A stretch of 12,599 nt of DNA, taken from an archaeon. Lineage in GTDB: Archaea; Iainarchaeota; Iainarchaeia; Iainarchaeales; Iainarchaeaceae. Numbering within the stretch: the stretch's first letter is position 1; each line of letters begins with the position of its first letter. Shown in pieces: positions 1-12,599 of this stretch. The translations under genes and the position numbers were made by a program. The DNA is taken from assembly GCA_038046625.1 (NCBI GenBank), contig JBBSVV010000010.1, positions 1-12,599 on the forward strand, written 5' to 3'. The notes below the pieces were generated by a model. That model had not been told where the DNA came from and did no database searches. It saw only the letters and a list, made by a program, of their open reading frames with translations.

Positions 1-1
1 A

Positions 2-2254
2 AAAGGAGCAAATATTTACATATGCAAGGACGGGAACAGCAGTTCGTGCACAACGTGGTGCACAGACTCGAATACCACTACAACCGCATTAGGGTGCACA
101 TACACAACCACCGTTTTAGATGTCGGCACGAAAGATTATAACGCGCTCATTTGCGACACAAACTCCGAGTGCTCTTCAGTAATTGCGCAGACTTTCACTG
201 TTGATTCTACGCCGCCCTCAACCAGCGTGAAGGATGTGAATGGCGACACCACCGCGCCTTACTGGGCAACCACAAGCTCGGCGGTAAAGCTCGTGATAAA
301 TGCTGGTGAGGCAGGCGCCGAATGCAAGTGGAATGACACGAACAGCGCTTCATACGCGTCATTCGGGACGCTCTGCACCACATCCGGCAACAATGCAACC
401 TGTGACTTGGGAACGAGAGGCCAGACAACGGGAACAACAATAACCACTTACTACAACTGCAAGGATTCAATAGGAAATGCAACGGGCGGAAAGGATGTTA
501 ACTTTGGAGTTGACTCCACAAAGCCTACTGCGAGCATTAACGGCACGGTTTCGGAAAATGGCGCCACTGTCATTTACTCGGGCGCTGATGCGCACAGCGG
601 CCTCCTGAAATACGAGGTTCGCGTCGACTCCGGCTCCTATATAGACAAGGGAACATCGGCAAGCCACGCGTTCAATGATTTGGCAAACGGCGACCACACT
701 TTCGAGGTTCGCGTCACCGACAATGCAGGAAACACTGATACGAACTCGGTTGTAAAGAACGTGAATTTCACTTCAACATCTATTCCATCAAAGCCCGCAA
801 TAAGGTCGGACACGCATGAGGAGGATGGCTGGACCGGCAGCAACAATCCCGAATTCAAGTGGGACTCGGATTCAAATGCAACGTCATACAGGTACGCGCT
901 GAACACGACGAGCGATTTTGCAATAAATTCAGGCAATGGCGAGTCAACAAGCGGCACATCAAAGAGCCACAGCGGCATTTCCGAGGGCGGAAAATGGTTC
1001 CACCTGGCTTCATGCAACGCCAACGGCTGCAGCTCAACAGACCATTATGGCATAAAGATTGACGAGAGCGGCCCACAGGCCATCACAAACATTTCAGGCA
1101 TGGGCCAGAGCGACGGAAGCATTTACATTTCCTGGGTAGCGCCCGAAGACAACCCGGGCAGCGATAACTCGGGAATCAAAGAGTACGTGGTTTACAGGAA
1201 CCTCAGGCAGCTTGTCGGCAACCGCGATTTCAGGCCTTCGGATTCCGGCGTAAAGGAGTTTGGCAACATTACGCGCACAAATTTTACCGATGATAACGGC
1301 CTCACAACAGGCATTTCATACTACTACATGGTTCAGGCGATTGACAATGCGGGCAACGAGGGCTCATTGAGCTCAATAAAGAGGTTCGTTGCCGGCGGCG
1401 AACCAAACCCGCAGAGCGGCTCGTGCGCAATCCAGATAACAATTAGCGTTCCGGAGAATGCGAAAGGCGGAAGCACAGGCATCAAGGTAACCGCTACAGG
1501 CGGAAAAATCGTGAACGCGGGCCTTAAAGTGAAGATGCCGGGAAAGAGCTTTGAAACGGTTCTCATCGGGCAGGCAGGAACATCATTCGGGTATGATTAC
1601 CTGATTCCGGAGAATTTGAGCGGAAGCGCGACAGTTTCTGTTGACGGCGAAGACGAGTCAGGCAACTCGTGCCAGAAGAACGAGGAGTTCACGGTTGATT
1701 CGGAAAAGCCGGAGATTTCCTCGGAGTCGCTGCAGGACGGTTCCATAGCCTCTGGAATCGTGCAGATAAAAATTGGCGCAAGCGACAATGGAACGGGAAT
1801 CCAGAGCGCCGAGGCATTTGTTGACGGGAAGAGCATCGGGCAATTGAGGCAAAGCGGCGGCCTCTATGTGCTTGACTGGAATTCTGCGGGAACCCCAAAC
1901 GGAACTCATAGTGTTGAAATAAGCGTGCAGGACAAGGCAGGCAACAAATCAGTGTCCAATGCAACTATCACCGTTAGCAATGAGGCCGTGCAGGAAGAGC
2001 CGGGCGGAAAAGAAAATGGAAAAGGCCCGCTTGATTCGCTTGGCCAGAAGGACATGCTTTTGATTATACTAGGCGTGATTATCCTAATAATACTTATTCT
2101 GGGTTTCCTTGTTTTGATTGGCGGCGGGGCTTTCCTTCTCCACAGGCACAGGAAGAAAGGCGGCGGTTTCGGCGGGTCAGGCAGCTTTGGAGGCCCGCTC
2201 AAGGGATATGAAAATTACGACAAGCCCGGAAGGTTCGGCTACAAGGGAAAATGA
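2..2254 (+). CDS. Large cell-surface protein with Ig-like/fibronectin-III-like repeats and a C-terminal transmembrane anchor; 5'-truncated by the window edge
   Basis: The frame of the listed 227..2254 ORF stays open back to base 2 (KGANIYICKDGNSSSCTTWC...), so the true start is outside the window. Repeated Ig-fold signatures (VDSTPP, VDSTKP, IDESGP, VDSEKP; DNAGN, DKAGN), Thr/Ser/Asn-rich, paired Cys. C-terminal hydrophobic helix LLIILGVIILIILILGFLVLIGGGAFLL is followed by basic HRHRKK. Confidence 0.85.
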   Translation, partial: KGANIYICKDGNSSSCTTWCTDSNTTTTALGCTYTTTVLDVGTKDYNALICDTNSECSSVIAQTFTVDSTPPSTSVKDVNGDTTAPYWATTSSAVKLVINAGEAGAECKWNDTNSASYASFGTLCTTSGNNATCDLGTRGQTTGTTITTYYNCKDSIGNATGGKDVNFGVDSTKPTASINGTVSENGATVIYSGADAHSGLLKYEVRVDSGSYIDKGTSASHAFNDLANGDHTFEVRVTDNAGNTDTNSVVKNVNFTSTSIPSKPAIRSDTHEEDGWTGSNNPEFKWDSDSNATSYRYALNTTSDFAINSGNGESTSGTSKSHSGISEGGKWFHLASCNANGCSSTDHYGIKIDESGPQAITNISGMGQSDGSIYISWVAPEDNPGSDNSGIKEYVVYRNLRQLVGNRDFRPSDSGVKEFGNITRTNFTDDNGLTTGISYYYMVQAIDNAGNEGSLSSIKRFVAGGEPNPQSGSCAIQITISVPENAKGGSTGIKVTATGGKIVNAGLKVKMPGKSFETVLIGQAGTSFGYDYLIPENLSGSATVSVDGEDESGNSCQKNEEFTVDSEKPEISSESLQDGSIASGIVQIKIGASDNGTGIQSAEAFVDGKSIGQLRQSGGLYVLDWNSAGTPNGTHSVEISVQDKAGNKSVSNATITVSNEAVQEEPGGKENGKGPLDSLGQKDMLLIILGVIILIILILGFLVLIGGGAFLLHRHRKKGGGFGGSGSFGGPLKGYENYDKPGRFGYKGK

Positions 2255-2259
2255 ACGGA

Positions 2260-2266
2260 TTTTTTT
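2260..2266 (+). terminator. Oligo-T archaeal-type terminator candidate
   Basis: T7 run 5 nt after the stop codon of the surface-protein gene. Confidence 0.35.
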
Positions 2267-2328
2267 CCTGTTTCAGTTTCCAAAAGGCATATTAAGCATT
2301 TGAGGCTCAATTTTTTAGAAGGTATTTT

Positions 2329-3477
2329 TTGGCTAACATGGTTACTGTTGCGGGTGCAGGCCCCACAGGAACGGCTGCGGCAAAAAGGCTGCAGGAAAAA
2401 GGGTGGGACACGATTATCCTTGAGGAGCATTCCCAGGTAGGAATTCCCGTGAACTGCACCGGCCTCATAAGCGCTTCAGGAGTTGAGGAGCTCAACCTTA
2501 GGAAGGAAGTGGAAGAAACCCTCATGAACAAGATCCGCGGCGCACAGATTTTTTCCCCGAACCATGAAATGGTTGAGGTTAAGAGGAGCGAGACCGTTGC
2601 GTATGTGATTAACCGCGGGAATTTCGACAGGGTTCTTGCCCGCGAAGCAACTGAAGCCGGGGCACAATTAAGGCTGAACACGAAGCTCATTGACGTGAGG
2701 AACGAAACCGTGTTCGTGGAGCACAAAGGCAGGGGCGAAATAGTGAAAACAAAGCTTGTTGTCGGCGCTGACGGCGTCAACTCAAAAACGAGGAACATCA
2801 TGGGAATCAAAACCGCGTTCAAGGACTTTGTTCACGCGTACCAGGTTGTTGCCACGGGAAAATTTGACCCGAAGTATGTGCAGGTTTTTTTCGGGGATTA
2901 CTCCAAAAACTTTTTCGCATGGATTGTTCCGGAGAGCGAGGAGCGCGCCCGTGTGGGGCTGGCCAGCACCTCTGGAAACGTGAGGAAGGACTTCAGCGTG
3001 TTCGTGAGCGAAAAAAACATTTCAGGCGAGCTCTGCGACAAGTGCAGTTCCTTGATTCCCATAGGAGAACCTTTGAAGGGAATTGTGAAGGACAACATGG
3101 CGCTTGTGGGTGATGCGGCTTTTCAAACAAAGGCAACGAGCGGGGGCGGAATACTTTTGGGCATCGAGGCGGCGCGCATCCTTGCGGACTCGATTGACAA
3201 TCATTTGCGCAACAATGCGCCGTTGAAGAATTACGAAAAGAATTGCTCAACGCTGAACAACGAGCTTAGGCTGCACTGGAAAATAAGGCAGTACATGAAC
3301 CAGAAGAACGAGGACCAGATGGACGCGCTTTTCAGGAAAATGAACAAGGCAAAGGTCGGGGAATTCCTGAGCCAGTTCGGCGACATGGACAAGCCCTCGC
3401 GCTTCGTGGGAAAAATAATGACGAAACCTTCAATGTGGCGCCTTTTCCCCGAGGCAGTGAAGTTCTTCAGGACATGA
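2329..3477 (+). CDS. Geranylgeranyl reductase family FAD-dependent oxidoreductase (DGGGPL reductase-like)
   Basis: Rossmann motif VAGAGPTG, GIPVNCTG motif, RGNFDRVLA, VGADG, FAWIVP, and VGDAA...SGGGI. Length 382 aa. Start is TTG 2329 or ATG 2338; TATTAAG near 2291. Confidence 0.88.
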   Translation: MANMVTVAGAGPTGTAAAKRLQEKGWDTIILEEHSQVGIPVNCTGLISASGVEELNLRKEVEETLMNKIRGAQIFSPNHEMVEVKRSETVAYVINRGNFDRVLAREATEAGAQLRLNTKLIDVRNETVFVEHKGRGEIVKTKLVVGADGVNSKTRNIMGIKTAFKDFVHAYQVVATGKFDPKYVQVFFGDYSKNFFAWIVPESEERARVGLASTSGNVRKDFSVFVSEKNISGELCDKCSSLIPIGEPLKGIVKDNMALVGDAAFQTKATSGGGILLGIEAARILADSIDNHLRNNAPLKNYEKNCSTLNNELRLHWKIRQYMNQKNEDQMDALFRKMNKAKVGEFLSQFGDMDKPSRFVGKIMTKPSMWRLFPEAVKFFRT

Positions 3478-3489
3478 AAATTTGCAGTT

Positions 3490-4569
3490 ATGAACAGGAC
3501 CATAATGCACATTGACCTTGATTACTTTTATGCGCAGCTCGAGGAGCTCCGCAAGCCTGAACTGAAGGGAAAGCCCGTTGTCGTGTGCATGTTCTCCGGA
3601 AGAACCCAGGATTCCGGCGCAGTTGCGACCGCGAATTACAAGGCCCGCGAATTCGGGGTTCATGCCGGAATGCCGATTGCATTTGCGAAGAGGAAAGCGC
3701 CGAACGCGGTTTTTTTGCCTGCCGACAGGGAGCATTACTCCGAGGTTTCCTCGCGCATAATGGATTTGCTCCGCGAATTCTCGGAAAAGTTCGAGCAGGT
3801 CGGCATTGACGAGGCGTATGTGGATGTTACCCGGCAAAGCGGCGGGAGCTTTCCGGAAGCCAGAAAAATTGCTGAAGGGGCGAAGAAAAAAATTCTCGAG
3901 GAGGAGAAGGTGACCTGCTCCGTCGGAATAGGGCCGAACAAATTGATTGCGAAAATGGCTTCTTCCGTGAAAAAACCGGATGGCCTGACGGTGATTGCGC
4001 CTGCACAAGTAACCGATTTTCTGCGCTCAAAAAGGATTTCTGACCTTCACGGGGTAGGAGAAAAAACAGCCGAACTGCTTAAGGAAAAGGGGATAAGCAA
4101 CATTCCGCAGCTGGCTCAGGCAAACGTTGCGGAACTGCAGGGGCTGTTCGGCGAGAACCGCGGCAGAATAATCCGTGAAAAGGCGCTTGGAATGGACAAT
4201 AGCGAGGTGGAGGAGCGTGAGAAGCAGCAGTATTCGCGCATCGCAACCCTCAAGGAAAATACCTCCGATTGTGAAAAAGTTTTTTCGGAATCAAAGGCGC
4301 TTGCCAGGGACCTCGCGGAAAAGGCCCTCAAGAACAGGGTTTCGTTCAAAACCGTTTCAATAATCCTGATTTCGGACAAATTGGAAACCGTGACGAGAAG
4401 CAAAACTCTCGAGGCCGCGACGCAGGAAGAGCACAAAATAATTGATATTGCGCGCGAATTGTTCACGGAATTTTTTGCGGCGCAAAAAGGGTTTGTTGCG
4501 CGCAGGTTCGGGCTTCGCATAAGCAATTTTGAGGAACCCAGAAAACAGAAGAGCCTTTTCGATTTTTGA
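3490..4569 (+). CDS. dinB: Y-family DNA polymerase IV (DinB/Dpo4)
   Basis: Motifs HIDLDYFYAQ, VATANYKAREFGVHAGMP, GIDEAYVD, SVGIGPNKLIAKMAS..KKPDG and HhH LHGVGEKT. C-terminal PCNA PIP-box QKSLFDF. Confidence 0.95.
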   Translation: MNRTIMHIDLDYFYAQLEELRKPELKGKPVVVCMFSGRTQDSGAVATANYKAREFGVHAGMPIAFAKRKAPNAVFLPADREHYSEVSSRIMDLLREFSEKFEQVGIDEAYVDVTRQSGGSFPEARKIAEGAKKKILEEEKVTCSVGIGPNKLIAKMASSVKKPDGLTVIAPAQVTDFLRSKRISDLHGVGEKTAELLKEKGISNIPQLAQANVAELQGLFGENRGRIIREKALGMDNSEVEEREKQQYSRIATLKENTSDCEKVFSESKALARDLAEKALKNRVSFKTVSIILISDKLETVTRSKTLEAATQEEHKIIDIARELFTEFFAAQKGFVARRFGLRISNFEEPRKQKSLFDF

Positions 4570-4614
4570 AAAAAAAGTTTTCGGCGGAGAAAAAAAATAT
4601 TTCCGCGCAAAAAT

Positions 4615-4950
4615 TCATGAATTCTTTTCCGCCATGTCGCCGATAATGGGCAACTTGTATTTTTCCTTGCTGTAGGCTTTGTACATCATTAATATCCAGA
4701 GCACAAGGGCTCCAAGGCCTACGAAAGGCAGGAGAATCCACCCTATTATGGTTATAGTGAGGATTATGTTCAGCACTATCACACCGATGAAAAGTATTGT
4801 GGACTGCATTGCGTGAAACCTGATGAACTTGTTGTCCTTCTCCATGAGAAGAAGTGCTATTCCCGTTATTGGGCCCAGCAGGTATGCCACCGCGCCCGCA
4901 ACGTTCTCCTCTAAGCCGATGGACGTTTTTGCTGTTGTTGCGTTAGCCAT
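4615..4950 (-). CDS. DUF4870-family small membrane protein
   Basis: Pattern GLEENVAGAVAYLLG...EKDNKFIRFHAMQS...MYKAY...YKLPIIG with three hydrophobic segments. SD AGGAGGT at 4958-4964 on the minus strand. Confidence 0.85.
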   Translation of the reverse strand: MANATTAKTSIGLEENVAGAVAYLLGPITGIALLLMEKDNKFIRFHAMQSTILFIGVIVLNIILTITIIGWILLPFVGLGALVLWILMMYKAYSKEKYKLPIIGDMAEKNS

Positions 4951-5055
4951 AAGTTTAACCTCCTTTCAAGTAGTTGTTGTATAAATCAGCGGTTTTGTGT
5001 TTTTATTTGTATGCGTTGGAGGTTTTGATACCAAAAACAATTTTTGAAGCCGCTT

Positions 5056-5073
5056 AATAGCCCGGCCCGGATT
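5056..5073 (-). repeat. Degenerate direct repeat of the tRNA-Gln 3' end (att-like site)
   Basis: aatagcccggcccggatt (5056-5073) versus aatagccccgcccggatt (6366-6383), 17/18 identical. It spans the T-loop end, T-stem 3' strand, acceptor 3' strand and discriminator. Confidence 0.75.
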
Positions 5074-5089
5074 TGTGGCAGGCACTAAT

Positions 5090-5311
5090 TCAAAGCAGTT
5101 TCAGGAATTCTTCCCTTGAAAGCCCGGTTTGTTTCAGGATGGAAAGCAAGGTACCTGGGACAATAACAATGTGGTTCGGGACAACCGCCCTCCTGAATGG
5201 CTCCTTACTTTCCCTTAGAATGAAATGCCCGCCGGTCTGATGGTCAACCTCGAACCCAGCTTTTTTCAAGGCCTTTATCACTTTGATGCCCGACAGAACC
5301 GGCAGTTTCAT
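5090..5311 (-). CDS. hicA: HicA-family toxin (mRNA interferase)
   Basis: MKLPVLSGIKVIKALKKAGFEVDHQTGGHFIL...VVPNH...GTLLSILKQTGLSREEFLKLL is the typical HicA pattern with the conserved His (GGH instead of GSH). Likely start is ATG 5311 (73 aa); the listed ORF starts at 5329. Confidence 0.9.
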   Translation of the reverse strand: MKLPVLSGIKVIKALKKAGFEVDHQTGGHFILRESKEPFRRAVVPNHIVIVPGTLLSILKQTGLSREEFLKLL

Positions 5312-5361
5312 CAAAACCACTAAATCCAAAAAAACTGAAAATAAAAGAAACCGGAATAATG

Positions 5362-5589
5362 TCAGGCTACCGAAACGGCATCGATTTCCACTTTTCTTTT
5401 GAACACTTTTTCTTCAGGATGTTTTTTTATGCTCTCCAAATAACCCTTGATTGCGTCTTTAATGTTCTTGAGAGCCTGAGCCCTTGTCTTGCCCTGGGAA
5501 ACGCATCCGGGCAGAGCCGGGATCTCGGCAACATACCAGCCTGTTTCTGCATCCTTGGCCAAAACAACTTTGTACTCCATATAAACCAT
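5362..5589 (-). CDS. hicB: HicB-family antitoxin (short form, no obvious DNA-binding domain)
   Basis: YKVVL..D.ETGWYVAEIPALPGCVSQGKTRAQALKNIKDAIKGYLE is the HicB core. It lies directly upstream of hicA on the same strand. Start is 5589 or 5580. Confidence 0.9.
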   Translation of the reverse strand: MVYMEYKVVLAKDAETGWYVAEIPALPGCVSQGKTRAQALKNIKDAIKGYLESIKKHPEEKVFKRKVEIDAVSVA

Positions 5590-5609
5590 AGAGATTAGCG
5601 CATCCGAAC

Positions 5610-5617
5610 TTTTTATA
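5610..5617 (-). promoter_or_regulatory. TATA-box candidate for hicBA
   Basis: Minus strand TATAAAAA about 20 nt upstream of ATG 5589. Confidence 0.45.
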
Positions 5618-5633
5618 GATTTGTTTTGGGAAT

Positions 5634-5644
5634 AAAAAAAGAAA
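5634..5644 (-). terminator. Oligo-T terminator candidate, probably the earlier tRNA-Gln terminator displaced by the cassette
   Basis: Minus strand TTTCTTTTTTT immediately follows the duplicated ATTCAGGCAGCC. Confidence 0.45.
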
Positions 5645-5705
5645 GGCTGCCTGAATAGCGGGTTATAGACAGCGTCATTTTTGGTTACTGTCCGTTGTAG
5701 AAGTT

Positions 5706-6248
5706 CTACTCTCGGTAACCTTTTACCGATACAATTTTTGCACCTTCCAATAAATAGTCATCCAAATATTGCCCTCCAAATGTCTCGTTTGTTTTGTACT
5801 GTGGTATTTTTGTTGTATTGCTAAGGTCAAATATGAATGAAAAATTTATACGCATTTTCTCTCCAATTGTTCCGTCTGAGGAAATGTTTTGCTTATAAGC
5901 ACTTAGTTCGGGAACCACTGGGTTGGAGCCACAATATAAGTAATTGATATTTTCACCTGTAGATTGACCCATATGGCATAGATAACTTCTAATATCATTT
6001 CCTTCAGTTGTGAATATCCACCCATTCTTGTTTTTGTGTGAAGGGAACACAAGGAATCTTCCTCCAGTTTGTCCTTCATGTATTTCATAGTTTTCTAAAC
6101 CATAGTATTGCAATGTTTCTTCATTAGAAGATGCTTGCTCAGGGGCAATTCCGGAATTAAGTTGTTGAGTACCATCTGGTTGATTTGGCTGGGTACTAAT
6201 GCATCCAAAAAATAAAAATAAAACTACTAAGTAAAATGCCGACTTCAT
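5706..6248 (-). CDS. Putative lipoprotein of unknown function (cassette passenger, 180 aa)
   Basis: The listed ORF 5706..6410 wrongly extends into the tRNA. Best start is ATG 6248, giving the signal peptide and lipobox MKSAFYLVVLFLFFGC followed by a Gln/Pro linker. A BRE/TATA-like CAAAAGCTTAAAG lies about 23 nt upstream. Confidence 0.75.
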   Translation of the reverse strand: MKSAFYLVVLFLFFGCISTQPNQPDGTQQLNSGIAPEQASSNEETLQYYGLENYEIHEGQTGGRFLVFPSHKNKNGWIFTTEGNDIRSYLCHMGQSTGENINYLYCGSNPVVPELSAYKQNISSDGTIGEKMRINFSFIFDLSNTTKIPQYKTNETFGGQYLDDYLLEGAKIVSVKGYRE

Positions 6249-6271
6249 TGTTGCATTATGCAAATATGCTA

Positions 6272-6284
6272 CTTTAAGCTTTTG
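6272..6284 (-). promoter_or_regulatory. BRE/TATA candidate for the cassette lipoprotein (leaderless)
   Basis: Minus strand CAAAAGCTTAAAG, 23 nt before ATG 6248. Confidence 0.45.
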
Positions 6285-6367
6285 CATTATTATACTCATC
6301 CAACGATTTAAGAAATTACGTAAAAGAATGCTCCAAATCCAACAATGTCTATAACCCGCTGCCTGAA

Positions 6368-6486
6368 TAGCCCCGCCCGGATTCGAACCGGGGTCTCGAC
6401 CTTGCTCCATTCTTCTTAATTTTTAAATCAAAAATCAACTTTAGAATCCCAGAGGGTCGAATCCTTGGCCACTAGACGACGGGGCT
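6368..6486 (-). tRNA. tRNA-Gln(CUG) with a 46-nt intron at position 37/38
   Basis: Minus strand AGCCCCG TC GTCTAGTGGCCAAGGAT T CGACC CT CTG G [intron] A GGTCG AGAC CCCGG TTCGAAT CCGGG CGGGGCT A. All stems pair, the A1-U72 pair is typical of archaeal tRNA-Gln, and CCA is not encoded. Exon 1 is 6449-6486; exon 2 is 6368-6402. Confidence 0.96.
6403..6448 (-). other. tRNA intron with a canonical bulge-helix-bulge motif
   Basis: Intron G-ATTCT-AAAGTTGATTTTTGATTTAAAAATTAAGA-AGAAT-GGAG-CA. Exon CUCU pairs with intron GGAG (4-bp central helix), 3-nt bulges are GG|G and CA|A, the outer helix is ATTCT/AGAAT, and there is an inner hairpin TTGATTTTT/AAAAATTAA. Confidence 0.92.
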
Positions 6487-7421
6487 ACTAAAACGTTCTT
6501 ATTAGCATCAGTTAACTTGGCTAATTTGACTGGATGCCTGAAATTAATCAATCTGGCAAACTTTAAAACACTATCCTTAGAGCGCAGTTCCACGGTATAT
6601 AAGGGAAGGAATTTCTCCGCTTTAAGCCATTGCCCGAACTTCGTTTCAATCCCAATAGAATTTAGCAACAATCTCACTTGGTCAATTATAACCTTGCTGG
6701 TACTAGCATACTTGACATAGCCTCTTTTAGTTATTGTTCCATCAGTGTCAAACAAGCCCTGCAAAAAAGCTTTTTTGACTTCAATAGCCGTTGAATCTAA
6801 TAGATTTTGAGGAACAAATATCCTGCTGCTCTTGAACCCATTGCAAACTCCAAAATAGCTTCTCAAAAACCAATGAAATACTTTGGAACAACACAATGAA
6901 ACATAACAATGCTCACTGGAAAGACGATGTATTTGGACTAAATCCAATTCCTTTCTAATTATACTGTCATAGAGTGCTCGATGCTCTAAATTATCAAAAA
7001 ACACTGCAACTCTCCAGTTACCTTTTTCATTTGAAATATTTCCTGCAAGAGAGCCATCACCAAGAATCACACCCACACAATAAGCCAAGTCAGGCGAAAT
7101 CTCTTTTGGAAACCTTAATTTATGCGGAGAATACTTGCAGCTTAGAAAAATTTCCTTTGAATCTATTCTTTGAACCATTTCCTTACGAAAATTCTCATTA
7201 CAAAGATTGAGAGTTTTATTTAAGTTCGCAAGAGAAATTGGCCTTCTGCCAAGTGTCCATTCCTTGGAAGCGTGATAACTTACCCCAATCAAACGTGACA
7301 CTTTTGGCGCTCCGCCTAACCTCAAAGCAATATCTTTTACTTCGGGAGCAATTCCATGCAACATTACATCGTTTTTTAGCCAATCAGACGGAGCATCAAA
7401 AATCGATAGTGAATTCTGCAT
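6441..7421 (-). CDS. Free-standing double-motif LAGLIDADG (DOD-type) homing endonuclease-like protein with an N-terminal HTH-like segment
   Basis: Two LAGLIDADG motifs, LAYCVGVILGDGSL and FLQGLFDTDGTI, and the DOD-type tail F..LINFRHPVK. HTH-like segment GGAPKVSRLIGVSYHASKEWTLGRRPIS. No intein splicing motifs. Start is ATG 7421 (TATA 22 nt upstream, 326 aa) or TTG 7481 (SD AGGTGG, 346 aa). Confidence 0.88.
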   Translation of the reverse strand: MQNSLSIFDAPSDWLKNDVMLHGIAPEVKDIALRLGGAPKVSRLIGVSYHASKEWTLGRRPISLANLNKTLNLCNENFRKEMVQRIDSKEIFLSCKYSPHKLRFPKEISPDLAYCVGVILGDGSLAGNISNEKGNWRVAVFFDNLEHRALYDSIIRKELDLVQIHRLSSEHCYVSLCCSKVFHWFLRSYFGVCNGFKSSRIFVPQNLLDSTAIEVKKAFLQGLFDTDGTITKRGYVKYASTSKVIIDQVRLLLNSIGIETKFGQWLKAEKFLPLYTVELRSKDSVLKFARLINFRHPVKLAKLTDANKNVLVAPSSSGQGFDPLGF

Positions 7422-7442
7422 GCAAGAATCACGCTTTGCGCG

Positions 7443-7457
7443 CTTTAAATAACTTTG
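7443..7457 (-). promoter_or_regulatory. BRE/TATA candidate for the LAGLIDADG gene (possibly also driving the tRNA)
   Basis: Minus strand CAAAGTTATTTAAAG; TTTAAA ends 22 nt before ATG 7421. Confidence 0.5.
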
Positions 7458-7477
7458 AGGGTTCATTGCCGGTGCGC

Positions 7478-7621
7478 TCAAACAACCACCTGAGCAAAAG
7501 TATAGCCGGCAAAAAATATTGCCGTATGAGAGCCGAAATCAATCAAACGCTCATCTGCTGTCAGCATATATAGCCCAAACGGAGCAACGCAAATCAAAGC
7601 CATGAAAAAGAAGGGAATCAT
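7478..7621 (-). CDS. 47-aa hydrophobic micro-protein (not in the ORF track)
   Basis: MIPFFFMALICVAPFGLYMLTADERLIDFGSHTAIFFAGYTFAQVVV*. The ATG overlaps the upstream stop (TAATG) and is preceded by SD-like GGAGGGG. Two hydrophobic stretches. Confidence 0.55.
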   Translation of the reverse strand: MIPFFFMALICVAPFGLYMLTADERLIDFGSHTAIFFAGYTFAQVVV

Positions 7622-7737
7622 TACAAATCCCCTCCAAACTGACTGAGAATCCAGATTTCCCTGTCAGAGAGAAACTCTGAATCTATTTCCTGGATTGCTT
7701 CCAGTTCTTCTATTGTTGGAATTTTGATTTGAACCAT
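7621..7737 (-). CDS. 38-aa acidic micro-protein (not in the ORF track)
   Basis: MVQIKIPTIEELEAIQEIDSEFLSDREIWILSQFGGDL*. Strong SD GGAGGTG (7745-7751) 7 nt upstream of the ATG. Confidence 0.6.
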   Translation of the reverse strand: MVQIKIPTIEELEAIQEIDSEFLSDREIWILSQFGGDL

Positions 7738-7744
7738 TCTTTGC

Positions 7745-7887
7745 CACCTCCGAAAAGAATGAATTTTTTCCGAAGACGGCTTGGGGCTTTCGCAGGCATT
7801 AAATCCTTTGCACCAAAAGCAAAGGTTCAGACGTGCGAAGGTTTAAGCCGAGAATGCCTAGACGTAGGAAAAAATTCGGCGGAGGTG
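7745..7887. ncRNA. Candidate structured RNA or structured leader, family unknown
   Basis: Complementary pairs: 7745-7752/7880-7887 (8 bp), 7761-7771/7867-7877 (11 bp), 7777-7782/7845-7850, 7789-7794/7834-7839, 7805-7811/7819-7825 (7 bp), plus a crossing pair 7794-7800/7853-7859 (7 bp). Confidence 0.55.
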
Positions 7888-7919
7888 TACTAGCTAGAAG
7901 TAAATCAAATTAGAAAAAA

Positions 7920-8147
7920 CTATATTTTTTGCCCTGGCATTTGCCATCGCATATTAGAGTTCAACTTTTGGCGTTCCAGTTCCCTTTCATCCATAAATTT
8001 ACCTAAAAAAGCAAACACACCTATGGAGAGTAAAATGCTTCCAGCTAGCATAGGAATTGAATCTGGTTGTGTGATGAGAAAACCGCCTATAATGGCAAAC
8101 GCTATTGAGGCAGCATATGGATTATCAATATTTTTTGGAAATTCCAT
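7920..8147 (-). CDS. Small two-helix membrane protein, unknown function
   Basis: 75 aa with two hydrophobic segments and a charged tail. AT-rich, with TTTAAAAA about 25 nt upstream of the ATG. Confidence 0.65.
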   Translation of the reverse strand: MEFPKNIDNPYAASIAFAIIGGFLITQPDSIPMLAGSILLSIGVFAFLGKFMDERELERQKLNSNMRWQMPGQKI

Positions 8148-8236
8148 AGTATTACACTATTCAAATAAAATTTTTAAATTCTACTTTTGGCGGCTTTGCT
8201 AAGCCTTATTAACCAAAAAAGCCCTTAGTTTTGCGT

Positions 8237-8479
8237 ATGGCCAAGCGCAACGAGAGCATCGAGGGGCTGAAGCAGATTGCCGCGAAAAACAAGCAGCACG
8301 AGCTCGAAAAAATTCTTGGAAACATGGTTGTGAAACTGCGCGAAATCGAGGAAATAAGGGCACAGATAGAAAAGGAGCAGTACAGCGGCGGCATCCCGAT
8401 TGAAAAGTCAAGGGAAATGCTTGAGGAAATAAAGGTGCCGAGCCTCGCAATGATAATGGAAGAAAAAAAGAAGCGCTGA
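8237..8479 (+). CDS. Small charged helical hypothetical protein
   Basis: MAKRNESIEGLKQ... (80 aa from ATG 8237). TTATTAA lies about 25 nt upstream, and the gene ends 6 nt before the DUF192 gene. Confidence 0.7.
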   Translation: MAKRNESIEGLKQIAAKNKQHELEKILGNMVVKLREIEEIRAQIEKEQYSGGIPIEKSREMLEEIKVPSLAMIMEEKKKR

Positions 8480-8485
8480 TTCAAA

Positions 8486-8839
8486 ATGCCACTAATTAAT
8501 TCAGCGAGCGGAAAAACCGTTTCTAAAAATGTTCATTTTGCAAAAACTTTTTTTCAAAAATTTAAGGGTTTAATGTTTGAGCGCGCAGATAATTTTGATT
8601 ACGCGCTCGTTTTTGAACTGCCCCGTGAAACGCGAATCGGCGCGAGCGTGCACATGTTCTTCGTTTTTTTTCCTATTGGAATAATTTTTTTGGATTCGGG
8701 GAAAAAAGTCGTTGATAAGGCTGTTTTGAAGCCGTGGATGCTGAATTATACTCCAAAGAAAGCCGCAAAGTATTTTGTCGAGCTACAGCCCGAAAAAATT
8801 TCAGAAATAAAATTAGGGGAAAAGCTTGAGTGGAAATAA
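8486..8839 (+). CDS. DUF192 (UPF0127) family protein
   Basis: Motifs AKTFFQKFKGLMF, VHMFFVFFPIGIIFLD, LKPW and AKYFVEL; 117 aa. Confidence 0.9.
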   Translation: MPLINSASGKTVSKNVHFAKTFFQKFKGLMFERADNFDYALVFELPRETRIGASVHMFFVFFPIGIIFLDSGKKVVDKAVLKPWMLNYTPKKAAKYFVELQPEKISEIKLGEKLEWK

Positions 8840-8857
8840 CAGGATAAATAAAAAAAG

Positions 8858-8880
8858 TTTCGGGAAAAATTTTCCCGAAA
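8858..8880. terminator. Perfect inverted repeat between convergent genes; bidirectional terminator candidate
   Basis: tttcgggaaaa-a-ttttcccgaaa, with an A7 tract at 8850-8856 (T7 on the minus strand). Confidence 0.5.
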
Positions 8881-8882
8881 AA

Positions 8883-9248
8883 TCATTGCGTCGTTCCGAG
8901 ATTGAATTCCTGGCGCGTTCCGTCGGGGCCTATCAGTACCATTGAGACGTTTTTGCCATCCTTGTCGAAGTAGTACTCTACAGTGGCCTGGCCGTCCTCG
9001 GTATTCATTTGGTAGTTTGCTTTGCACCTTCCATCAGCCTGCACGCCTTCAATTGTATAGTTCGCATTTCCCTGCGGACCCGCTGCGTTCCATTGCGCTC
9101 CGGGAGTGCACCAGCCTGAAGTAAGGCCTGTATTTGTTGTGACCGTTGTGCCATCCGGGCCGACATATGTGCTTGTCCCGGGAGCTGCGCAGCCGGCAAG
9201 TACAACTAAAAGGGATAAAGTAGCAATCGAAAATAATGTTGTGTTCAA
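8883..9248 (-). CDS. Putative lipoprotein, unknown function
   Basis: TTG start with SD GGAGGTGA. Signal peptide ends in the lipobox VLAGC, and two further Cys are present. TTATAAAG promoter candidate near 9293-9300. Confidence 0.8.
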   Translation of the reverse strand: MNTTLFSIATLSLLVVLAGCAAPGTSTYVGPDGTTVTTNTGLTSGWCTPGAQWNAAGPQGNANYTIEGVQADGRCKANYQMNTEDGQATVEYYFDKDGKNVSMVLIGPDGTRQEFNLGTTQ

Positions 9249-9371
9249 TTTTTCACCTCCAAAAAAGCAATATAGAGATTGACGCCCTGCAGCTTTATAA
9301 TTTTGACCATTTAGGAAGGATTAAAAAAAGTAACACCCATTATTCGTTGATTGACGAAGTGTGTGTTTGTG

Positions 9372-10832
9372 ATGCCTCGAAAAGCCATTTTTGATTCGGA
9401 AAGAACAGCCGAAATGCTCGGCTGGGCAATCTACAGGCCAAAAAACAAGGTAAAAACGGTTTCTGAAAACGAATTGAGGGAGATTGCAGAGCTTGAAAAC
9501 TCCGAAAGGCTCTACATTGTGAAGAGGCTGCCCGAACTGAGTTCAGCGGAGGCAGAACTCGCCGCTGAAATTACGCGCAGGTTCCTTGAATCAAAAGGAA
9601 AGAGGCGCGAAACAACACTGAAGCAGGAAATGGAGGAGCACTGCAGAAGCCTGAACATCATTCTTGACGAAAGGCAGCGGCAATACATGCCAATTCTTCT
9701 ACATAATTGTGTTGCGGCTGCGGGAATCCTTTCCGAATTGCTCCAAGATGAAAACCTCGAGGAAATAGCGGTTACCGGAACAGGAAAAGCAAAACCGATT
9801 TTTGTTTTCGATTCGAGCTTTGGGTGGCTCGCAACCAACATTTACTTCTCCAGCGCGGACAAGGTTAGGCAGGTCGCGAACGCAATGGCATCGCACACAG
9901 GAAGAAGGATTACAATGCAGAAGCCATCACTGAACGCCGTCCTGAATGACGGCTCAAGAATGAACGCGTGCATCGAGCCTGCCGCATTCACGGGACCGAC
10001 AATAACAATAAGGAAGTTCAGGAAGAGCAGGTTCACGCCCTCCAATCTTATTTCTTTGGGGAGCGTCGGGGCCGAAGAAATGGCTTTGCTCTGGATGGCG
10101 ATGCAGAGCGACTGCTCAATACTGGTTTGCGGCAACACCGGCTCTGGAAAAACCACCCTGCTGAATTCTCTCCTGAACTTCGTGCCAAAAAACGAGAGGA
10201 TTGTTTCCGTGGAGGAAACGCCCGAAATAGTTGTTCCGCATCCGCATTTCGTGAAGCTCAGCACGGTTGATGGAATCGAGATAGGCATGCAGGAACTCAT
10301 AGTGAATACGCTCAGAATGAGGCCGGACAGGGTAATTGTGGGAGAAGTCAGGGAAAAAGGCGAGGCAAAGGCATTCATGGACACAATACTCGCGGGCCAG
10401 GGAAAGGGCACTTACGCAACTTTTCATGCACAGTCCGCCCTTGAAGCGGTCGCAAGGTTGCGGGCATTAGGAATACTCGAAATTGATGCCGCATCCATAG
10501 ACCTCATAGTGACGCAGAAAAGATGGACGGAAAAACATGGCGCCAATTTTCTGGAGCGGAGGGCGCTTGTCGAAATATGCGAACCGCAAATCGTGAAAGG
10601 CGGGCTTTCGCTCAACAGGCTTTTTTCGGCGCACGGGTTCGGGAAAAAAGAAAAAGGAATTGTGCGCAAAAGTTCGCGCGTGAATGAAAAAATATGCAGG
10701 ACTTTCGGCCTCGCGCCTGACGGAATCCGGAAAGAGATATCAAAAAGGGCGGAGTTCCTGAACAAAATTTCCGGAAAAAACTGGGGAGAATACCTTGATG
10801 AAATCAATGGATACTGCAATTCGGAAACTTGA
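9372..10832 (+). CDS. Type II/IV secretion system / type IV pilus assembly ATPase (VirB11/CpaF/TadA/ArlI family)
   Basis: LLQDENLEEI, ITIRKF, Walker A GNTGSGKT, Asp box VSVEETPE, LRMRPDRVIVGEVR (Walker B) and His box TFHA. The start is uncertain (9351, 9372 or 9414). Confidence 0.92.
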   Translation: MPRKAIFDSERTAEMLGWAIYRPKNKVKTVSENELREIAELENSERLYIVKRLPELSSAEAELAAEITRRFLESKGKRRETTLKQEMEEHCRSLNIILDERQRQYMPILLHNCVAAAGILSELLQDENLEEIAVTGTGKAKPIFVFDSSFGWLATNIYFSSADKVRQVANAMASHTGRRITMQKPSLNAVLNDGSRMNACIEPAAFTGPTITIRKFRKSRFTPSNLISLGSVGAEEMALLWMAMQSDCSILVCGNTGSGKTTLLNSLLNFVPKNERIVSVEETPEIVVPHPHFVKLSTVDGIEIGMQELIVNTLRMRPDRVIVGEVREKGEAKAFMDTILAGQGKGTYATFHAQSALEAVARLRALGILEIDAASIDLIVTQKRWTEKHGANFLERRALVEICEPQIVKGGLSLNRLFSAHGFGKKEKGIVRKSSRVNEKICRTFGLAPDGIRKEISKRAEFLNKISGKNWGEYLDEINGYCNSET

Positions 10833-11601
10833 ACAGGATTTGCTCTCACTCGGGGAAAAAAAACCCGTAAAGGGATACCTTGCGGGCGCCGCAAAAATTT
10901 CTGTGCTCGCATTCATTCTCGCGTGGCTGTTGTGGAACCTGTTTTTTTCCGCGCCGGTTGAAGGGATTGCATTCTCCGCGCTCTGCGGCACGTGCGCATT
11001 CGTTTTTATTTTTGGCAGGCCCAAAGCGCGGCTTGAAAGGAAGGCAAGGTTGATTGAAAAGCACCTGCCTTTTGCACTGATGCAGCTGAGTGTGGAGCTC
11101 AACATCGGGATTCCGTTCGAAAAGGCGCTTTCCTCGATTGCCGAATCAGATTATGGCGTCCTTTCAATTGAACTCAAAAGGGCGCTTATAGAGTCAAGGT
11201 CCGGCGTTTCAGTGACGGAAGCCCTTGCCAGGATGTGCGAAAGGAACCGCTCGAGGCTCTTGTCAAGGAGCGTTGCGCAGCTCGCCTCCATTTATGAGAA
11301 GGGCGGAAAGAAGGAACCCGGAGAGGCCATAAGGAGCCTTGCAAAGGAACTGCTTTCCAGGCAAAAGGCGGAGGCAAAGGAATTCTACGGAAAAGCCGCG
11401 GTTTACTCGCTCGCATTCATCGTGGTTTCCGCCATTGTTCCTGCGCTGTTCCAGGCATTTGTAATGGTTGGAAGCAGCTTCATGGAAACGGGCTTTGAGC
11501 CGGAACAAGTGCTTCTGATTGTTGCATTATTATTCCCGCTGACGGACGCGCTTCTCCTTTTCTCCATAAAGGCGAGGATGCCGGAATCCATGAGGCAGTG
11601 A
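10807..11601 (+). CDS. Type II secretion system F domain (TadB/TadC-like) membrane platform protein
   Basis: IEKHLPFALMQLSVELNIGIPFEKAL...ELKRALIESRSGVSVTEAL pattern and four hydrophobic helices. Overlaps the ATPase 3' end; start is 10795-10807. Confidence 0.88.
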   Translation: MDTAIRKLEQDLLSLGEKKPVKGYLAGAAKISVLAFILAWLLWNLFFSAPVEGIAFSALCGTCAFVFIFGRPKARLERKARLIEKHLPFALMQLSVELNIGIPFEKALSSIAESDYGVLSIELKRALIESRSGVSVTEALARMCERNRSRLLSRSVAQLASIYEKGGKKEPGEAIRSLAKELLSRQKAEAKEFYGKAAVYSLAFIVVSAIVPALFQAFVMVGSSFMETGFEPEQVLLIVALLFPLTDALLLFSIKARMPESMRQ

Positions 11602-12491
11602 AAATGGGAAAAAAAGAGTTTGCGGAAATTCTTGGCGCAATAAACTACGGCGGCGGGCTTAGGGGTTTTCTGGGCTTATCGGTTTTTCTGGGGGCGGCAC
11701 TTTCTTTGGCCGTGCTTTACCTTGGATTGTTCGTGCTGAAAAGTGAAAAGGTAAGTGTGGCCTCGGTTCTGGCTTTTTTTGCGCCCCTTGTGCTGAACTA
11801 TTTTTACTGCCTGCATTTGTTCGAGCAGAGGAAAAAATCCATTGAGGATGCGGTTCCTGACATGTTGCTGCTCGCCTCCTCGATTCCGGAGGGAACGAGG
11901 CAGGACAAGACGCTGGGCTTCATGGCAACGCACTCGCCGAGCCCGCTGAGGGAAGAGTTTTCGGCGGCGGAAAGGGAAGTGGAAGCCGGAATGCCACTTG
12001 AACAGGCATTTGAAAAAATAAAGGCGCGGAACAAATCCGCTTCGCTTTCAAGGGCGATTGATTTGATAACGAATTCATTTATTTTGGGAGGAAAGATGCA
12101 GAGCATTTTCCGTGAAACCGCAGAGGACTTCATGGAAACCAACGCAATCATCAGGGAGAGAACAGCCAACGCGGCAATTGAGAAGTACACTCTTTTGTTT
12201 GCAGGGGGATTAGTGGTGCCACTCATACTCGGCCTTGTTTCGGGAATGGTTTCAGGCCTCGATTTTTTGGCCGCTTCCGGAATCGGCATCGGAGCAGGGG
12301 AAGAAGCGCGGAAAAAGCTTTTTGATTACGCGCTCCTCGGGAACGTCATTTACATCATTGAATACGCGGTGATTGCCTCGGCTTTCGTTGCCTTCACGGA
12401 GAACCAACAGCGGAAAGCTGTTGTGTACGCATTCTTCCTTGTTCCGTGCGGGCTGGTTGTGTATTTCCTCGGGAGCGGGTTTTCATTGTAA
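11598..12491 (+). CDS. Second type II secretion system F domain (TadC-like) membrane protein
   Basis: IEDAVPDMLLLASS...PLREEFSAAEREVEAGMPLEQAF pattern. GTGA start/stop overlap with the previous gene; multiple TM helices. Confidence 0.88.
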   Translation: MKMGKKEFAEILGAINYGGGLRGFLGLSVFLGAALSLAVLYLGLFVLKSEKVSVASVLAFFAPLVLNYFYCLHLFEQRKKSIEDAVPDMLLLASSIPEGTRQDKTLGFMATHSPSPLREEFSAAEREVEAGMPLEQAFEKIKARNKSASLSRAIDLITNSFILGGKMQSIFRETAEDFMETNAIIRERTANAAIEKYTLLFAGGLVVPLILGLVSGMVSGLDFLAASGIGIGAGEEARKKLFDYALLGNVIYIIEYAVIASAFVAFTENQQRKAVVYAFFLVPCGLVVYFLGSGFSL

Positions 12492-12493
12492 GC

Positions 12494-12599
12494 AACCCTT
12501 TCGCCGGTTCGCCCTGTCGGGTGCAAGGGGAGCGAGTACCATCTTCGCTTGGGCTCGATAGTAAGAACTGCACTGCCGGAGGCGTGCGCCCCCCCCGCC
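12494..12599 (-). ncRNA. GC-rich structured ncRNA resembling the HgcC family (Rfam RF00062); 5' end at or beyond the window edge
   Basis: Minus strand GGGGGCGCA..CCGG.CAGUGCA..CGAGCC..AGCGA..GUAC.UCGCU..UUGCACCC.GACAGGG..CCGG.CGAAAGGG. Stems: 12504-07/12576-79, 12521-25/12569-73, 12531-35/12545-49, and CCC-GACA-GGG. The family resemblance is from memory of HgcC motif order, not from a search. Confidence 0.55.

Follow-up and report, generated by a model that had tools for sequence, protein, structure and literature searches.

A single-gene insertion behind a tRNA-Gln gene of an Iainarchaeales archaeon, probably a miniature casposon moved in trans

How can a single gene, enclosed by repeats, come to sit exactly at the end of a tRNA gene when it brings no gene for an integrating enzyme with it? 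The question is raised by a stretch of 12,599 nucleotides from an archaeon of the order Iainarchaeales (assembly GCA_038046625.1, contig JBBSVV010000010.1, positions 1 to 12,599 of the forward strand; hereafter the window), in which a 698-bp body lies between two copies of a 14-bp repeat, directly behind a gene for tRNA-Gln. A preliminary description of this DNA, made from the letters alone, had read the locus as an enzyme-less single-gene cassette that was inserted precisely at the tRNA 3' end, and this was borne out by the Rfam tRNA, the repeats and the single open reading frame (ORF). The features on which it had built (a 15-bp inverted repeat, a 14-bp direct repeat and the overlap with the discriminator base) are all present where it had placed them. 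In our view the 698-bp segment is probably a natural miniature, non-autonomous derivative of a family-2-type casposon, which carries one passenger gene and was moved in trans. Casposons are large self-replicating transposons driven by Cas1, and the integrase that inserts CRISPR spacers presumably descends from their Cas1.

The insertion behind the tRNA-Gln gene

The site is empty in a genome of the same genus, G001. Window positions 5543-5659 align with positions 1749-1869 of the G001 locus L005, and positions 6360-6409 with L005 1858-1903. Both alignments share one repeat copy, and the segment 5660-6357 plus one copy of the repeat are therefore present here and absent there. The G001 locus carries a single target copy of 12 nt (L005 1858-1869) at which the hicB-side and the tRNA-side sequences abut, and the alignment ends exactly at the repeat boundary, at 5659. 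The oligo-T tract that now flanks the distal end of the insert is found in G001 directly 3' of the single target copy, and we infer that it acts as a terminator. The G+C content of the insert is 35-38%, as against about 50% in the flanks (1-4350 and 9750-12450). Since the site is empty in G001 and the composition of the insert differs from that of its flanks, the element is mobile DNA that was inserted behind the tRNA. The preliminary description had also looked to relatives for an allele that lacks the insert, and G001, with its one target copy, provides it.

In the duplicated 14 bp, the final 4 nt of the tRNA are followed by 10 nt of its trailer. With the tRNA placed at 6368-6486 (Table 1), the right repeat copy covers the discriminator base and the last three acceptor bases. 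From shuffled sequences, 0.06 direct repeats of this kind are expected at two mismatches or fewer. A perfect inverted repeat of 15 bp (5657-5671 and 6346-6360) can be drawn across the same borders; at three mismatches or fewer it has only these two matches in the window, where shuffles give an expectation of 0.12. The functional units are the 14-bp duplication and two ends that start with GGG (at 5660 and 6357), rather than an 8-bp duplication with 15-bp arms. The bases AGC/GCT outside the ends are target sequence that extends the symmetry by chance, because the related termini described below begin at GGG. When the first 30 nt of the two ends are compared, 20 agree.

A third copy of the 14-mer, with one mismatch, is located on the minus strand within a small ORF (7920-8147, minus strand). 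Neither a casposon-type end nor a T-loop was found alongside, and this near-copy is probably due to chance.

The tRNA is recognised by Rfam, with an insert (an intron) of about 46-49 nt in the anticodon loop. ARAGORN misses the gene with default settings and, when introns are allowed, reports Glu(CUC) with the intron placed within the anticodon. We argue from the sequence that the gene is better read as Gln(CUG) with a canonical intron at 37/38, because the orthologue in G001 has an uninterrupted CUCUGGA anticodon loop, and because a tRNA of the order genome G135, which lacks an intron and is nearly identical in its body, has the anticodon UUG.

Table 1. Positions of the insertion, its target and neighbouring features in the window, together with the casposon-type termini and loci used for comparison.
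Feature	Position	Strand or length	Remarks
Target tRNA-Gln(CUG), intron-bearing	6368-6486	-	Rfam RF00005, 42.6 bits (gathering score 29); still intact after the insertion
T-loop motif TCGAATC	6380-6386	-	8 bp upstream of the duplicated segment
tRNA-side copy of the 14-bp direct repeat	6358-6371	.	Includes the final 4 nt of the tRNA (GCU + discriminator A) at 6368-6371
tRNA-proximal terminal inverted repeat, GGGTTATAGACATTGTTGGATTTGG, read inward	6333..6357	-	
Insert body	5660-6357	698 bp	One gene; absent from G001 along with one repeat copy
Cargo gene, 180 aa	5706-6248	-	Sole intact gene between the ends; starts MKSAFYLVVLFLFFGC
Distal terminal inverted repeat, GGGTTATAGACAGCGTCATTTTTGG	5660..5684	+	First 12 nt identical to the other end; 19/25 overall
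Distal copy of the 14-bp direct repeat, GCTGCCTGAATAGC	5646-5659	.	Perfect match to 6358-6371
Former tRNA trailer, oligo-T run CCTTTCTTTTTTT	5633..5645	-	Now just outside the distal insert end
Element end, tRNA side			GGGTTATAGACATTG
Element end, distal side			GGGTTATAGACAGCG
G135 casposon end, first bases			GGGATATATACAGCG
G179 casposon end, first bases			GGGATATATACAGCT
G024 casposon end, first bases			GGGTTATAGCTA
Cas1-solo casposon of G179	L203 6895-17296		
Cas1-solo casposon of G135	L205 3860-12882		
Cas1-solo casposon of G024	L204 from 7893		
Loci of tRNA-adjacent casposon-type ends	L288-L296, L298, L299, L301, L313		
LAGLIDADG_3 ORF, 346 aa	6441-7481	-	Directly upstream of the tRNA
Near-copy of the 14-mer	8101-8114	-	One mismatch
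Remnant of the tRNA-Gln 3' end	5059-5076		17/18; same orientation as the tRNA
hicA	5090-5329	-	
hicB	5362-5589	-	

Homology of the ends to casposon termini

Both ends of the element start with GGGTTATAGACA and match the GGGWTATA termini of Cas1-solo casposons from the same order and from methanogens. The comparison drew on 196 genomes of the order and 215 of the phylum. Cas1 is encoded in 14 of the 196 order genomes, and three of these (G179, G135 and G024) have Cas1-solo proteins of 393-410 aa with neither Cas2 nor Cas4 alongside. The Cas1 gene is enclosed by inverted ends of 44 nt (98% matching) in G179 and of 59 nt (88% matching) in G135. All three casposons begin after a gap of precisely 10 nt behind a tRNA 3' end, and the 14-bp duplications are perfect in G179 and G135. 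The target in G135 is a tRNA-Gln(UUG), and the duplication there also starts with GCTA.

An ORF with the polymerase motif CDTDS is present in all three loci, split in two in G024; according to the accessible text of PMC7544198, this motif gives its name to the divergent polymerase group of the Aciduliprofundum boonei casposon. The ORFs of 855 and 868 aa gave exclusively sub-cutoff matches in Pfam and NCBIfam, and the 855-aa ORF had no sequence match in the Protein Data Bank; it is the CDTDS motif that suggests that both are polymerases. The casposon records of the order carry the names Ca. Iainarchaeum and Ca. Forterrea multitransposorum, and searches that were weak on this point found no paper describing the casposons of G179, G135 and G024 for these lineages.

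A contig search with the three casposases of the order returned 80 loci, the first 24 of which were run through an end finder that is blind to the terminal motif (10-nt inverted seeds, flanking identity of at least 11/14). In 10 loci it returned a single candidate each; a further locus gave six candidates, all weak and AT-rich, and 13 gave none. Each of the ten single candidates starts with GGG, with flanking duplications that match at 14/14 positions in nine and at 13/14 in one. The ten casposons delimited in this way span about 9-11.3 kb, and their two ends agree at 24-30 of 30 nt. The gap between tRNA and casposon end was 10 nt in seven of the nine casposons checked, and both exceptions are without an adjacent tRNA. 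Full-length relatives of the casposases (49-59% identity) come from DPANN-type archaea and methanogens (Methanosarcinales, Methanolobus, Methanoculleus, Methanogenium). When the two ends of the element were aligned with 13 other termini, 10 of them from Cas1-encoding elements, eight positions were invariant (G1-G3, T5-A8 and A12), and the distal end of the element has GGGxTATA and A12 in common with all 14 other termini.

The layout of the duplication, 4 nt of tRNA plus 10 nt of trailer, is that published for the casposons at tRNA-Leu of Methanosarcina mazei (Hickman et al., PMC6977970, Fig. 1 and Results, as far as accessible). We read the element as casposon-type because it shares this layout, and because its ends are homologous to casposon ends. 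The insertion chemistry was very probably of the casposase type, and we infer from it the action of a casposase. The proposal in the preliminary description of a DDE transposition with an 8-bp duplication is at odds with both the 4 + 10 nt geometry and the ends (GGGTTATAG...), which are those of family-2-type casposons.

The insertion could have proceeded as follows. A casposase supplied in trans would bind both ends of the element and would recognise the 3' region of tRNA-Gln by the T-loop TCGAATC, 8 bp upstream, and by the border between tRNA and trailer. The two 3'-OH ends (the strands of the element's termini end with ...ACCC-3') would be joined to target strands 14 bp apart, gap filling would duplicate GCTATTCAGGCAGC and thereby restore an intact tRNA 3' end, and the cargo would end up between the tRNA and the old oligo-T tract, in the orientation of the tRNA. 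The T-loop motif is likely the recognition motif of the casposase in this target, its use at this site being suggested by analogy: the casposase of A. boonei depends on a TCAAATC that precedes its duplicated segment by 8 bp, and of the casposon end no more than the five outermost nucleotides are necessary for it (both in the accessible text of PMC6614799). Neither cas1, the casposase gene, nor polB is present in the element, and on the best reading it keeps only what integration needs, namely the casposon termini.

The combined pattern of T-loop, 22 nt and GGGWTATA occurs in 15 of the 196 order genomes and in 16 of the 215 phylum genomes, with no match for the reversed control, and a Cas1-solo gene accompanies it in only three of the 15. 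Two genomes of the same family, G012 and G015, have near-identical ends at the orthologous tRNA-Gln, but with different 10-nt trailers; the lone end in G012 is identical to the distal end of the element at 23 of 25 positions. Viral contigs gave 26 matches to the pattern, none of them with a partner end; as several are merely the next tRNA in a row of tandem genes, the pattern by itself lacks specificity outside the lineage.

As a separate observation, casposon-type ends are located exactly 10 nt past tRNA genes in 11 order genomes without Cas1 and in one further genome of the phylum, G214. At the 11 order sites neither a partner end nor a second copy of the duplication was found in the 0.7-19.9 kb available, and five of them have less than 5 kb before the contig end; they are read as lone ends or as elements truncated by contig ends. 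These apparent lone ends (11), which resemble those described for M. mazei, outnumber the full casposons (3) found in the order.

The cargo gene and the alternatives to movement in trans

The cargo protein has a hydrophobic N-terminus that ends with FFGC, followed by a conserved W..CHxGxxxGENINYxYCG..SDGTIG core, and is predicted to be secreted or lipoprotein-like. It has no match in Pfam. A word-indexed search of 5.8 billion clustered proteins returned only the protein itself, and a full HMMER scan of 1.84 billion representatives returned seven relatives, all of them weak. Ten columns are invariant in an alignment of six sequences, and the AlphaFold2 model based on this six-row alignment has a mean pLDDT of 49. 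The family appears as a sparse group of secreted proteins of 150-260 aa, with an invariant Trp, two Cys and the GENINYxYCG core, and relatives with 26-35% identity occur in a few genomes from other families of the order. AT-rich, TATA-like motifs were read by eye 30-46 nt upstream of the ATG of the cargo gene; the promoter and terminator scan used was of the bacterial type and is uninformative for an archaeon. As the cargo gene is co-oriented with the tRNA directly upstream, it may be transcribed by read-through from the tRNA promoter, and transcription from a promoter of its own is equally possible.

The element was probably already small when it moved, as opposed to a longer one that shrank at this site, and dependence on an enzyme supplied in trans, as put forward in the preliminary description, is the most plausible assumption. 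Artificial mini-casposons do translocate in cells of M. mazei, so small constructs can be moved in trans (Gehlert 2023, accessible text of PMC10359463).

Several observations weigh against this view. No casposase gene was found in the assembly (84.6% complete, 57 contigs) with Pfam Cas1 and a profile of the three casposases, nor was a casposase found in 22 other genomes of the family, where the sole Cas1 (in G022) is accompanied by Cas2 and Cas4. The element is present in a single copy: a degenerate search for its ends in the genome gave only the two known ends, along with 13 further 9-mer matches at chance level, and the match inspected on contig C36 has neither a tRNA nor a partner. Another complete miniature was not found at any of the other 14 pattern sites of the order. 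No close homologue of the cargo was found in the 195 other order genomes or in the large protein collections, and none of the casposon loci compared yielded a cargo homologue. The agreement of 20/30 between the two ends is below that of every one of the ten full casposons (24-30 of 30), and the target has GCTA where M. mazei targets show the conserved 4-nt motif CGCA. Finally, the Logan contigs of four public runs show the filled site only, with no empty-site or excised form. The filled junctions are spanned, free of any differences, by contigs from X6 and X9 (one study) and from X8 (another study), two studies besides the likely source of the DNA. The junction or empty-site molecules suggested by the preliminary description were not found, and no contig joins across the element. 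These contigs say little on excision, because contigs drop rare variants.

The main rival is a collapse in place, in which a full casposon with cas1 and polB inserted in the normal way, one or two deletions later removed its interior, and the small form never moved. The footprint and the homology of the ends are the same as for a moved miniature. Decay of casposons is common, as illustrated by the 11 Cas1-less order genomes with an unpartnered end at a tRNA, and solo ends have been published for M. mazei (accessible text of PMC4779613). The collapse is a serious rival because no casposase was found, because the element exists in one copy and because the cargo family was found in none of the casposon loci compared. 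The last of these points also speaks on the other side, as a relative of the cargo was found in none of the casposons examined. Nor does the interior hold any trace of cas1, polB or other casposon genes in blastn and tblastx comparisons with all the casposon loci compared, and to leave one intact gene with both ends would require either a terminal gene or two deletions. The duplication is perfect (14/14), as are the terminal 12 nt, yet the subterminal agreement falls below that of all ten full casposons; this pattern fits an older lineage that is kept only at its tips better than it fits a recent wreck. We regard the collapse as a possible but rather unlikely origin.

Far less probable is a cassette moved by a tyrosine recombinase, for which the preliminary description had pointed to lox/FRT-type arms. 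After excision, a 15-8-15 junction would act as a lox/FRT-like site and recombine with a weak 4-8-4 site at the tRNA end. It is true that the inverted symmetry runs 3 bp into the direct repeat, but an extension of this length is expected by chance in 1/64 of cases, and the outer 3 bp come from the target, since the 13 related termini show no conservation of AGC/GCT: homology among them starts exactly at GGG and the preceding bases vary. The 14-bp repeat, the 4-nt overlap with the tRNA and the 10-nt gap recur at Cas1-encoding elements. In favour of such a cassette, integrase-type insertions have a hotspot at this tRNA end (the remnant at 5059-5076 and a 55-bp duplicate in G001), and one tyrosine recombinase gene, of the Phage_integrase family, is present in the genome. 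This gene is on contig C41, unlinked to the element, and none is linked to the element or found in the window.

A derivative of a DDE insertion sequence (a miniature inverted-repeat transposable element (MITE) or a passenger form of, say, an IS1595-like element, the inverted ends being 15 bp and the duplication 8 bp long) is highly improbable: an 8-bp direct repeat flanked by perfect 15-bp inverted repeats can be drawn, but the repeat is 14 bp and not 8, such that the extra 3 + 3 bases must match by chance, no IS1595-type or DDE_Tnp_1 transposase was found in the assembly, and the ends are homologous to casposon ends instead.

Searches with the 15-mer of these arms bear on the same question. 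The 15-mer has no further copy in the genome, where only the two known copies were found at two mismatches or fewer. At one mismatch the 195 other order genomes gave five single matches, against ten for the reversed control. The exact search returned at least 118 stretches from metagenome contigs and 44 from viral contigs; each of the 162 exact matches listed is single, and in no case does the similarity continue into the flanking sequence. The 15-mer was the wrong probe for relatives, because it includes three target bases. The preliminary description had further thought of an undescribed archaeal cassette system. So far this amounts to one element, with no second copy of its ends or of its cargo.

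If a miniature casposon was indeed moved here, casposases can move foreign cargo in trans in nature, and archaea of the DPANN type with reduced genomes have an added route of gene gain. The 698-bp element and the tRNA-Gln from -30 to +14 would then form a substrate/target pair for biochemistry. The claim is limited by the single copy, the lack of a helper found and the collapse in place as a rival. More tentatively still, one might imagine that the casposases of small-genome archaea serve as site-specific cassette integrases that, like the integrases of integrons, act in trans to place single passenger genes at the ends of tRNA genes, and that natural mini-casposons are a real class. Miniature and lone-end forms would then be living examples of the Cas1-less, repeat-flanked intermediates that have been proposed between casposons and CRISPR arrays. 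We consider this wider picture doubtful at present.

The tRNA-Gln neighbourhood and known systems

The surroundings of the tRNA gene show further differences between the two congeneric species. The introns of their tRNA-Gln(CUG) genes seem to differ in position: the one in the window interrupts the anticodon loop, whereas that of G001 separates the D arm from the anticodon arm. The anticodon stems also differ between the tRNA of the window and the G001 orthologue (L005 ~1868-1985), which Rfam scores below threshold, at 23.4 bits. Directly upstream of the tRNA is a LAGLIDADG_3 ORF, the final 15 codons of which run through the 5' half of the tRNA to a stop inside the intron. Sequence resembling this ORF is found beside tRNA-Gln in seven other genomes (G006, G007, G015, G012, G011, G004 and G021), and G001 is without about 1.6 kb that correspond to window positions ~6595-8200.

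On the other side, at a distance of 1.3 kb from the genuine tRNA end, the remnant of the tRNA-Gln 3' end brackets a HicAB toxin-antitoxin pair (hicA and hicB in Table 1). An orthologous remnant of the tRNA 3' end is also present in G001, where in addition a perfect 55-bp duplicate of the 3' part of the tRNA flanks a 323-aa ORF without a Pfam match (L005 123-177 and 1245-1285). These arrangements look like stacked integrase-type insertions, for which the same tRNA end is a hotspot.

Full casposons, lone ends and man-made mini-casposons are described in the searched literature, which was in part accessible. A natural, gene-carrying miniature casposon was not found in it, with the proviso that subscription papers and supplements may differ. 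In the accessible parts of PMC6614799, PMC10359463, PMC5137440 and PMC4779613 the term mini-casposon stands for laboratory constructs, and the accessible part of a survey of thaumarchaeal casposons contains neither mini-casposon nor non-autonomous casposon as a term.

The closest known systems are the family 2 casposons, namely MetMaz1FA1A3-C2 with its M. mazei relatives and AciBoo-C1 of A. boonei. According to the accessible accounts, they share with the element the 14-bp duplication made of 4 nt of tRNA and 10 nt beyond it, terminal inverted repeats with strands that end in C-3', and the T-loop motif 8 bp upstream of the duplicated segment. They also share the repeated use of one tRNA end, beside integrase-type elements: the accessible text of Krupovic 2016 (PMC4779613) describes 14-bp duplications, tandem re-use of one target and lone ends in M. 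mazei, as well as a casposon that shares its tRNA with a neighbouring tyrosine-integrase element. In contrast to the family 2 casposons, the element has no cas1, polB, HNH or HTH genes, measures 0.7 kb where the ten delimited casposons measure about 9-11.3 kb, and has ends with only 12 perfect (~25 imperfect) nt. Its target is a tRNA-Gln with GCTA replacing CGCA, and its host is a small-genome archaeon from groundwater.

In design, the element resembles the mini-casposons made in the laboratory, in which a resistance marker was placed between casposon ends (Hickman and Dyda 2015, cited in PMC6614799; Beguin 2016, PMC5137440; Gehlert 2023, PMC10359463; each as far as accessible). Both consist of two casposon ends around an unrelated cargo, with a casposase acting in trans and a duplication of 14-15 bp (PMC6614799 and PMC10359463, accessible text). 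Unlike these constructs, the element is natural, carries a gene for a surface protein of host type and resides in a genome in which no casposase was found. The solo ends of M. mazei are likewise Cas1-less remnants of casposons at casposon target sites, but in the accessible text of PMC4779613 they are single, with no cargo and no second copy of the duplication, whereas in the element a second end, a second copy and an intact gene are present. The parallel with the MITEs of DDE transposons lies in the short length, the retention of only the ends of an autonomous transposon and the use of an enzyme made elsewhere; the ends and the footprint of the element are those of a Cas1-type integrase and, unlike a classic MITE, it carries a gene.

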